Assembly (NCBI RefSeq): GCF_057098645.1
Contig: NZ_CM169472.1
Direction: 5' to 3' (one strand)
DNA length: 64,000 nucleotides
In this document: positions 61,401 to 64,000 of the stretch, in pieces
How the letters are laid out: every line of letters begins with the position of its first letter
Numbering within the stretch: position 1 is the first letter of the stretch
Made by a program: the position numbers

Positions 61401-64000
61401 TCCATGAGGAACGGAATGATGAATAATAAAGTCAGCTTCACTAACAGCAATAATCCAACCATCTCTTTGTCTGCAGTGATCTATTTCCCTCCAAAATTTG
61501 ATGAAACCCGTCAGCATCCGGCAATTGTGGTATCTCACCCAGGTGGGGGCGTTAAAGAACAAACGGCCGGAACTTATGCCGAAAAACTGGCGGAAAAGGG
61601 ATTTGTCACTATTGCTTATGACGCATCTTATCAAGGTGAAAGTGGCGGCGAGCCGCGTCAGTTAGAAAACCCATACATTCGTACTGAAGACATCAGTGCC
61701 GTGATTGATTACCTGACAACGCTTTCTTATGTCGACAATACCCGAATTGGTGCGATGGGAATTTGTGCCGGTGCAGGATATACAGCCAATGCTGCAATTC
61801 AGGATCGCCGCATCAAGGCCATCGGTACCGTTAGTGCGGTCAATATTGGTTCGATGTTCCGTAATGGTTGGGAAAACAATGTGAAATCTATTGATGCCCT
61901 GCCATACGTTGACGCGGGTTCAAACGCCCGAACCAGCGATATTAGCAGCGGAGAATATGCCATTATGCCACTGGCACCAATGAAGGAGTCCGATGCGCCG
62001 AACGAAGAACTGCGTCAGGCCTGGGAGTATTACCACACCCCTCGCGCGCAGTATCCAACAGCACCGGGTTACGCTACTTTGCGCAGCCTTAACCAGATTA
62101 TTACCTATGATGCTTACCATATGGCGGAAGTGTACCTGACTCAGCCGACGCAGATTGTGGCGGGCAGCCAGGCAGGGAGCAAATGGATGAGTGACGACCT
62201 GTACGATCGAGCATCAAGCCAGGATAAACGCTATCACATTGTTGAAGGCGCAAACCATATGGATCTTTATGACGGCAAAGCCTATGTGGCTGAAGCAATT
62301 TCAGTATTAGCTCCGTTCTTTGAGGAAACTCTGTAATGAAACATATTCAAATCCGCAATAGTGATATGGCCTGGCATATTGCTGCCAATATTCAGTTTCC
62401 ACCAAATTTTGATGAGTCAAAACAGTATCCGGCGATTATCAGCGTCCATCCTTTTGGCAGTTGTAAGGAGCAGACGTCTGGCAATATCTATGGCAAGGCA
62501 TTGGCTGAAAAAGGCTATGTCGTTCTCGCTTATGACGCCAGTTTCTAGGGAGAATCTGGTGGGGAGCCTCGTTGGATAGAAGATCCGACACAGCGCGTAG
62601 AGGATATTAGCCGTGTTATCGATTATGCAGTAACTCTGCCATATGTTGATGCTGAACGCATTGGCGTGCTGGGTGTGTGTGGGGGGGGTGGCTATGCCAT
62701 TAATGCCGCGCTGACAGAAAAACGAATTAAAGCTGTAGTGAGTATTACGGGTGTTAATATCGGGCGTCTTTTTCGGGAAGGTTTCAGCAATTACGATCCG
62801 ATTGGCGCATTGAATGCAATGGCGTCGCAACGAACCAAAGAGGCTCGTGGTGGAGAATTACAGATCAACGAATTACTTCCCGCCAGCCTGGATGCAGCAA
62901 AAGCCCATGGACTGACCGAACGCGATGTTTATGAAGCAACTGACTACTATAAAACACCACGCGGGCAACAACCGGGAGGTGCGACAAAAATGTTGTTCTC
63001 ACATGCACAGAAAACGCTGGCCTGGGATGCCTTCGCATTTACTGAAGTGTTACTGACTCAGCCGGTGATGGTAGTAGTTGGTGAAAAAGTCGGTGCCTTC
63101 GGTGCTTATCGTGATGGACTGGAATTCTATGGCCGGGCGATGGTTTCGCAGGATCGTCAGTTAGTTTCATTACCCGATTTCTCACATTATGAACTGTATG
63201 ACAAACCGGAAGCAGTTCAGGAGGCGCTGGAAAAAGTTATTCCTTTTTTCAACACCCATCTGTGATAAGTTTCATGAGAAATATTATGAAAAATGTACTC
63301 ATTCTTGGTGCTGGCGGTCAGATAGCCCGCCATGTGATTAATCAACTGGCAGATAAACAAACCATTAAACAAACTTTATTTGCTCGTCAGCCAGCAAAAA
63401 TACACAAACCCTATCCAACTAATAGCCAGATTATTATGGGGGATGTACTGAATCATGCAGCACTGAAGCAGGCCATGCAGGGACAGGATATTGTGTATGC
63501 CAACCTTACGGGGGAAGATTTAGATATTCAGGCAAATTCAGTGATCGCTGCGATGAAAGCCTGTGATGTTAAACGTCTGATCTTTGTTCTTTCCCTCGGC
63601 ATTTATGATGAAGTTCCAGGAAAATTTGGCGAATGGAATAATGCAGTTATTGGTGAGCCCCTAAAACCATTCCGCAGGGCTGCGGATGCAATTGAGGCTT
63701 CTGGACTGGAATATACAATTCTTCGCCCTGCCTGGCTGACGGATGAAGATATTATTGATTATGAGCTTACCTCACGCAAGGAACCATTCAAAGGTACGAT
63801 CGTATCACGTAAGAGTGTCGCAGCATTAATTACAGATATCATCGATAAACCTGAGAAACACATTGGTGAGAATATAGGCATCAATCAACCCGGGACTGAT
63901 GGCGATAAGCCATTCTTCATGTAAATCAATTATATAGCTACCATCGTACTGTACTATGTGCAGTACGATTTATTAAACTTATTAAGGTGAACTGATCAAT

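Follow-up and report, generated by a model that had tools for sequence, protein, structure and literature searches.

An amber codon in the second alpha/beta-hydrolase gene of the pgrR-ycjY cassette of Escherichia coli O145:H28

In Escherichia coli K-12 the genes ycjY, ymjD, ymjC and mpaA lie in the PgrR regulon, which has been described under the heading of "peptidoglycan recycling" (PMC5934670). Over-expression of YcjY leads to filamentation (PMC3614548), and the protein was once proposed, by way of its GXCXG motif, as a candidate complexed poly-3-hydroxybutyrate (cPHB) polymerase (PMC3709699); a literature search for its crystal structure (PDB 5XB6) found no accompanying paper. A parallel to the lesion reported here is found in lacI, where CCAGG sites methylated by Dcm are the classic hotspots of spontaneous amber mutation (Coulondre 1978, reviewed in PMC12606429). 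We have analyzed a 64,000-nucleotide stretch of contig NZ_CM169472.1 (RefSeq assembly GCF_057098645.1; the whole stretch is called "the window" below), in which ycjY is followed by a second gene of the same protein family, here called hydrolase-2, whose reading frame is interrupted by a single amber codon. A 25-kb query placed the window in O145:H28, a food-borne pathogen lineage of Shiga-toxin-producing E. coli, with 100% identity to strains RM12761 and RM13516 except for an insertion present in those strains. With RM12761 it shares 99.97% identity over 45 kb and is collinear from position 17388 to 64000, apart from that insertion sequence (IS).

The interrupted frame and the lineage that carries it

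Translation of positions 62336-63268 gives a single frame (MKHIQ...AYDASF*GESGGEPRW...FFNTHL) that ends with TGA followed by TAA and whose sole internal stop is the TAG at 62546-62548. The original prediction, a tandem paralogue of ycjY continuous for 310 codons except for this TAG, where YcjY has Gln, is borne out by translation and alignment in all but two particulars: the frame has 309 codon positions, and 310 only if the terminator is counted, and the two neighbours, although paralogues, do not look like the products of a recent duplication (below). When Gln is restored at the stop, the 309-amino acid product is 42% identical to YcjY over 299 amino acids (E=6e-80), with a YcjY Gln opposite the stop, and a 930-nucleotide frame with one stop and homology at this level is far beyond chance. 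The ycjY stop and the hydrolase-2 start overlap in the sequence TAATG. A run of eight G residues (G8) was said to lie at about 62674-62681 and to be in frame; the run exists and is in frame, seven nucleotides farther downstream (Table 1), and it is not the cause of the inactivation in the window.

Domain searches, which used the Gln-restored sequence, place hydrolase-2 in the Pfam alpha/beta-hydrolase clan, with PF02129 (Peptidase_S15, 42.3 bits, cut-off 23), PF01738 (DLH, 35.7 bits, cut-off 21) and Hydrolase_4 all above their gathering thresholds. NCBIfam offers no specific family name (the best match, UilS lactonase, scores 77 bits against a cut-off of 400), and the generic "alpha/beta hydrolase" is the only name that applies. 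The closest solved structures are YcjY itself (PDB 5XB6, E=1e-68) and Pseudomonas PA2218 (PDB 2HDW, E=5e-41). A database search returned 3774 homologues at E<=1e-30, and identity to hydrolase-2 is 85–87% in Klebsiella and Serratia and 79–83% in Mesorhizobium, Afipia, Agrobacterium, Paracoccus, Sphingobium and Brevundimonas. In an alignment of 13 gamma- and alpha-proteobacterial sequences Gln71, the DAS(F/Y)QG-SGG motif, the predicted nucleophile elbow G113-V-C115-G-G117 and the predicted catalytic His284 are invariant. Translation of the window gene should end after 70 of the 309 residues, upstream of the codons for both Cys115 and His284, so that the predicted 70-amino acid product lacks these two residues, everything catalytic would be lost to the amber codon, and no active enzyme could be made.

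The populations of alleles were counted in 5426 complete E. coli genomes by exact matching of each allele of a 52-mer centred on the TAG. The segment is present in 1282 genomes, 1245 of which carry the CAG version exactly and 26 the TAG version; the 26 carriers are labelled O145, O145:H28 or O145:NM, or have no serotype label. Because 26 complete assemblies, independent of one another, share this TAG-bearing 52-mer without a difference, the TAG is an inherited, lineage-fixed substitution of O145:H28 and not a sequencing error. The lesion is thus real. It was first described as fresh-looking, with read-level verification as a check, but it is no private event of this genome: it is a fixed O145:H28 marker, and in the RefSeq record of O145 strain 95-3192 the Prokaryotic Genome Annotation Pipeline (PGAP) already labels it an "alpha/beta hydrolase" with an "internal stop". 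In this respect the pseudogene is an ordinary one, already flagged in public annotation; our literature search found no mention of it, of feaR or of ycjY in the O145:H28 comparative-genomics paper.

Full-length orthologues carry one uninterrupted frame where the window has the premature stop. The intact gene of strain ECC-1470 encodes 310 amino acids (WP_000680603.1), and relatives of this kind, together with the 1245 genomes that have CAG at codon 71, support the prediction of a single-point pseudogene of a YcjY paralogue. Taken with the heritability of the lesion, as seen in the 26 assemblies and in a second amber codon with an identical strain distribution (below), these comparisons make it very probable that hydrolase-2 of the window is a nonsense (unitary) pseudogene that has truly lost its function. 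Codon 264 holds the second derived change of the O145 allele (V264F), and its TTC is common to the window and 95-3192. Coordinates of these features and of the neighbouring genes are collected in Table 1.

Table 1. Features of the pgrR-ycjY region (window coordinates)
Feature	Position	Strand	Basis or remark
hydrolase-2, very probable pseudogene; second alpha/beta hydrolase (DLH-like, Cys-nucleophile) of the pgrR-ycjY cassette	62336..63265	+	translation, homology, PGAP
former Dcm site, ancestral CCAGG to CTAGG; base altered is the inner C, the target of Dcm methylation	62545..62549	+	alignment to O157:H7 and ECC-1470
amber TAG, codon 71, ancestral CAG (Gln)	62546..62548	+	leaves 70 of 309 residues
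Cys115 codon, predicted nucleophile of G-V-C-G-G	62678..62680	+	invariant in alignment; 3' of the stop
G8 homopolymer, codons 116-118 (GGG GGG GGT)	62681..62688	+	in frame; within the GVCGGGGYA elbow
codon 264, TTC (Phe)	63125..63127	+	GTC (Val) in O157:H7 and ECC-1470; Val/Ile in homologues
His284 codon, predicted catalytic His	63185..63187	+	invariant in alignment; 3' of the stop
ycjY, intact, first hydrolase of the cassette	61416..62336	+	matches PDB 5XB6
NAD(P)H-binding SDR-type gene, intact, 212 amino acids	63286..63924	+	20 nucleotides 3' of the pseudogene
pgrR (ycjZ), divergent LysR-type regulator of the cassette	60379..61278	-	annotation, domain match

Origin of the stop codon

The ancestral sequence, TTCCAGGGA, holds the Dcm site CCAGG, and where the O157:H7 and ECC-1470 alleles read TTC CAG GGA the window reads TTC TAG GGA, a C-to-T change at the inner C of that site. 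Of 120 nonsense substitutions that are possible in hydrolase-2, 23 are G:C-to-A:T transitions and only 3 are targets of Dcm deamination; the observed change is one of these 3. The genes for Dcm (WP_001157243.1) and Vsr are annotated as intact in O145:H28 strain RM12761. We thus find what a Dcm-associated mutation should show, an ancestral CCWGG with a G:C-to-A:T change at the inner C in a lineage that encodes the methylase. The 5-methylcytosine at the inner C of CCAGG would have deaminated to thymine and escaped Vsr repair, and this one transition would have converted Gln71 (CAG) to the amber codon in an ancestor of the sequenced O145:H28 strains, where it would then have become fixed. While the Dcm site and the C-to-T change can be read directly, their sequence context makes deamination of 5-methylcytosine the most likely origin. 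If so, the hydrolase-2 TAG would be an instance, in a natural population, of the textbook Dcm amber hotspot.

A parallel case is present in the same window. The feaR gene (30245-31150) is interrupted by a TAG at 30422-30424 where K-12 has ACC TGG CAG, a TGG-to-TAG change, and this CCTGG-to-CCTAG substitution is the complementary-strand version of the hydrolase-2 event. The feaR TAG allele is found exactly in the same 26 genomes as the hydrolase-2 TAG, and the suggestion that the two genes share a lesion type is correct, both lesions being amber codons. An in-frame transition of this kind at a Dcm site always gives an amber codon, because its products are always CTAGG or CCTAG. The two TAG codons make a clean single-nucleotide marker of the O145:H28 lineage, present in 26 of 26 carriers and nowhere else among the complete genomes surveyed.

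Some points weigh against the account given here of how the stop arose and of what it did to the gene. A plain replication error would yield the identical C-to-T change, the G:C-to-A:T class including 23 of the 120 possible nonsense changes. V264F is the sole derived substitution other than the stop, and the sequence alone gives no statistical proof of lost constraint. Finally, the exclusion of a suppressor tRNA (below) covers glnV, glnX and serU of one O145:H28 genome and the window.

State of the locus across E. coli

Among the 5426 genomes, 5217 match the gene at its 5' end or over a longer stretch, and 1271 have a full-length match in one place. In approximately 3,900 only about the first 55–58 nucleotides are kept. 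The tract that is G8 in the window is interrupted (GGGGGTGG) in 876 genomes, whose gene is apparently intact; it is G8 in 76, G9 in 212 (among them Sakai, EDL933, EC4115, TW14359 and O55:H7 USDA5905) and G10 in 73, a spread of which some may be homopolymer sequencing error, although the Sanger-era reference genomes and the duplicate assemblies of RM9872 argue that much of it is real. The G8 run of the phylogroup-E alleles was made by a synonymous GGT-to-GGG change.

K-12 belongs to the large group with truncated genes. Two internal deletions (about 870 bp and about 690 bp) have reduced the genes between its ycjY and mpaA to the fragments ymjD and ymjC, and our comparison of this region with the window shows the same locus with the same two genes: hydrolase-2 is the full-length counterpart of ymjD, and the short-chain dehydrogenase/reductase (SDR)-type gene that follows it is that of ymjC. 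K-12 retains the first ~55 and last ~11 nucleotides of hydrolase-2 and ~140 nucleotides of the 5' part of the SDR gene. In the window, on the other hand, both genes are full length, hydrolase-2 having been killed by one nonsense change and the SDR gene being intact.

The "dienelactone hydrolase" pseudogene of O157:H7 strains Sakai and EDL933 is the orthologue in a sister lineage of enterohaemorrhagic E. coli (EHEC), and it too is annotated as a pseudogene with a point lesion (the Sakai copy as a pseudogene, a G10 copy as "frameshifted"). Unlike in the window, however, codon 71 is still CAG in O157:H7 and O55:H7, and what shifts the frame there is growth of the G8 tract to G9 or G10, which is an independent event. 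O145:H28 and O157:H7 are of common lineage (PMC3893438), and the O55:H7/O157:H7 branch would have lost hydrolase-2 by slippage and the O145:H28 branch by the amber mutation. Strains labelled O157:H7 include all of G8, G9 and G10, and a few O157:H7 assemblies with G8 and CAG have an apparently restored open reading frame (ORF), for example TR01, whose ycjY is annotated as having an "internal stop"; such restored frames could reflect slippage, reversion or assembly error. Because deletion or disruption has struck it independently on several occasions, hydrolase-2 is dispensable in E. coli generally.

Further lesions have accumulated inside O145. In RM12761 and RM13516 a 1449-bp ISEc20 (IS110-like) lies within the G tract, between gene nucleotides 351 and 352 (window 62686/62687; positions 2754-4202 of the RM12761 locus), and in RM10425 and two assemblies of RM9872 the TAG is accompanied by a G9 tract. 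Since both lesions are found downstream of the TAG, the frame is apparently no longer maintained, and its reading frame appears to be under no selection after the stop in these O145 sublineages. V264F bears on this as well, since every homologue examined has Val or Ile at that position. Another copy of ISEc20 is present in 95-3192, in a prophage tape-measure gene.

Could the gene nevertheless be functional in O145:H28? That the TAG is an error of sequencing or assembly in an intact gene has nothing specific in its favor beyond the single-base difference from relatives, and with the same 52-mer determined in different laboratories and on different platforms, and a feaR amber distributed among strains exactly as inherited lineage markers would be, we regard its likelihood as negligible. 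The ORF listing does show two ORFs, which in theory could be separate functional genes, one for a 70-amino acid N-terminal peptide and the other for a 199-amino acid protein restarted at GTG 62666. But relatives such as ECC-1470 and the CAG genomes carry one ORF; the restarted product would be missing residues 1–110, including the conserved HPFG and DASFQGESGG segments; no Shine-Dalgarno-like motif occurs in the sequence before 62666 (GAACGCATTGGC); and ISEc20 breaks the 62666 ORF in RM12761. We rejected the restart at 62666 for the missing motif and missing residues, and two separate genes are extremely improbable. Suppression of the amber codon by a tRNA of the lineage would leave hydrolase-2 functional and would rescue feaR as well, and the presence of two amber-broken genes within 32 kb might be thought to favor it. 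A suppressor is not required to explain the pair, however, because both ambers are G:C-to-A:T transitions within CCWGG sites of Dcm, where an in-frame change of this kind can only produce TAG. In addition, no tRNA gene was found in the window, and in RM12761 glnV and glnX have the wild-type anticodon CUG and serU the wild-type CGA; the supE44 allele of glnV is present exactly in 155 genomes, and the 60 of them that were listed are all laboratory derivatives of K-12. This allele search alone left O145 carriers possible, and the matter was settled by reading the glnV/glnX cluster of RM12761 directly. The suppressor question raised by the original prediction is thereby answered for these genes only, and with the insertion and G9 frameshift 3' of the TAG also speaking against a maintained frame, we find read-through very improbable and retain the nonsense pseudogene as our interpretation.

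A different sort of alternative accepts the loss of function but holds that it was adaptive, loss of hydrolase-2 having been selected in E. coli and EHEC, with the G tract possibly a reversible on/off switch. At least four types of lesion (deletion in ~3,900 genomes, G9/G10 in ~285, amber in 26, and IS insertion) affect one small gene whose protein is otherwise 80–87% conserved across proteobacterial classes; all three tract lengths occur within O157:H7; the paralogue YcjY causes filamentation when over-expressed (PMC3614548); and the tract, as in a contingency gene, is a long coding homopolymer whose length (G8, G9 or G10, in the numbers of genomes given above) varies among close relatives. 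On the other hand, about 900 genomes apparently retain an intact copy, sequencing error may account for part of the differences in homopolymer length, a dispensable accessory gene in neutral decay would also be lost repeatedly, and the types of lesion are counted by genome and not as independent events on a phylogeny. We consider adaptive inactivation unlikely, and that hydrolase-2 is under recurrent selection for loss in E. coli, with the phylogroup-E G8 tract as a mutable switch, strikes us as doubtful. Were it true, the cassette and PgrR would be natively unrelated to the peptidoglycan-recycling role that has been inferred from the truncated K-12 operon.

The cassette and its relation to known systems

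Hydrolase-2 belongs to an arrangement of four genes that is conserved well outside E. coli. Serratia marcescens (locus positions 2034-5587) and Afipia carboxidovorans (1960-5672) both have a divergent LysR-type gene, a YcjY-like hydrolase gene, hydrolase-2 and a gene for a 211-amino acid NAD(P)H-binding protein. Between E. coli and Afipia the identities are 74% for PgrR, 79% for YcjY, 81% for hydrolase-2 and 67% for the SDR protein. Within each of E. coli, Serratia and Afipia the two hydrolases are only ~40% identical to each other, and because this is so in all three organisms and the order of the cassette is shared, the pair appears to be an ancient, co-maintained duo and not a recent tandem duplication. 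The conserved module is probably horizontally mobile. Neither mpaA nor mppA is nearby in Serratia or Afipia, and the retention of the cassette without them suggests that the four genes may form a functional unit of their own. The Serratia cassette is followed by additional SDR genes and genes for a flavodoxin-like protein and an old yellow enzyme (OYE)-type reductase, a context that may point to a mobile module with a role in detoxification or catabolism and not in peptidoglycan recycling. In the window the early stop might plausibly be polar on the SDR gene and mpaA; a consensus scan for promoters and terminators in 61200-64000 found no more sites than in shuffled sequence.

Several observations concern relatives of these genes. 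A 489-amino acid protein from a Logan assembly, which aligns with 97% of the hydrolase-2 query at 99% identity, has NAD_binding_10/NmrA domains in addition; this apparent hydrolase-2/SDR fusion is probably the product of a frameshift or of the loss of a stop. A third gene of this kind, for the related alpha/beta hydrolase WP_000860032.1, is present in about 1,700 genomes (in ATCC 25922 at locus positions 3183-4103, near ykgR/ykgM); around the nucleophile it matches the query 58-mer at 81.7%. Beside it are a divergent LysR-type gene and a gene for an NADH-dependent flavin oxidoreductase, which makes a module of similar organisation at a different locus.

Elsewhere in the window, a 75-nucleotide internal fragment of the epoxyqueuosine reductase QueH gene lies between mppA and pgrR (~60207-60281, minus strand); PGAP annotates it as a pseudogene in O145, O157 and ECC-1470 genomes. 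At ~19297-19300 the paa operon lacks 4,951 bp relative to K-12, a segment that begins in the 3' end of paaF and takes in most of paaK; this loss and the feaR amber together suggest joint decay, in this lineage, of the whole pathway of phenylethylamine/phenylacetate catabolism. We had assumed collinearity with 95-3192, the best gene-level match, and had to reject it, as it holds only from 42527 on. That strain has a Rac-like lambdoid prophage with tRNA-Arg/Arg/Ile genes at ttcA; in positions 1-42526 of the window the Rac attachment site at ttcA is free of any prophage, and the sole match of the window to this prophage region is an IS3-like segment (8804-10114, 95%).

The pseudogene reveals no new kind of system, and its importance is modest. 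About one sixth of E. coli genomes have the intact cassette of which the K-12 ycjY-ymjD-ymjC-mpaA operon is the decayed form, and any inference about PgrR or YcjY function that is made from K-12 only is affected by this decay. With YcjY (5XB6) and PA2218 (2HDW) hydrolase-2 shares a subfamily, the G-x-C-x-G elbow and the DAS(F/Y)QGESGG motif, but it is only 42% identical to YcjY and makes up an orthologous group of its own that is conserved from Enterobacteriaceae to Alphaproteobacteria. Its lesion is like the amber hotspots of lacI in that a C-to-T change at the second C of CCAGG turns CAG into TAG. It differs from them in that the lacI mutants were selected in the laboratory in K-12, whereas the hydrolase-2 and feaR ambers are fixed natural polymorphisms of a pathogen lineage whose probable Dcm origin is read from the sequence.

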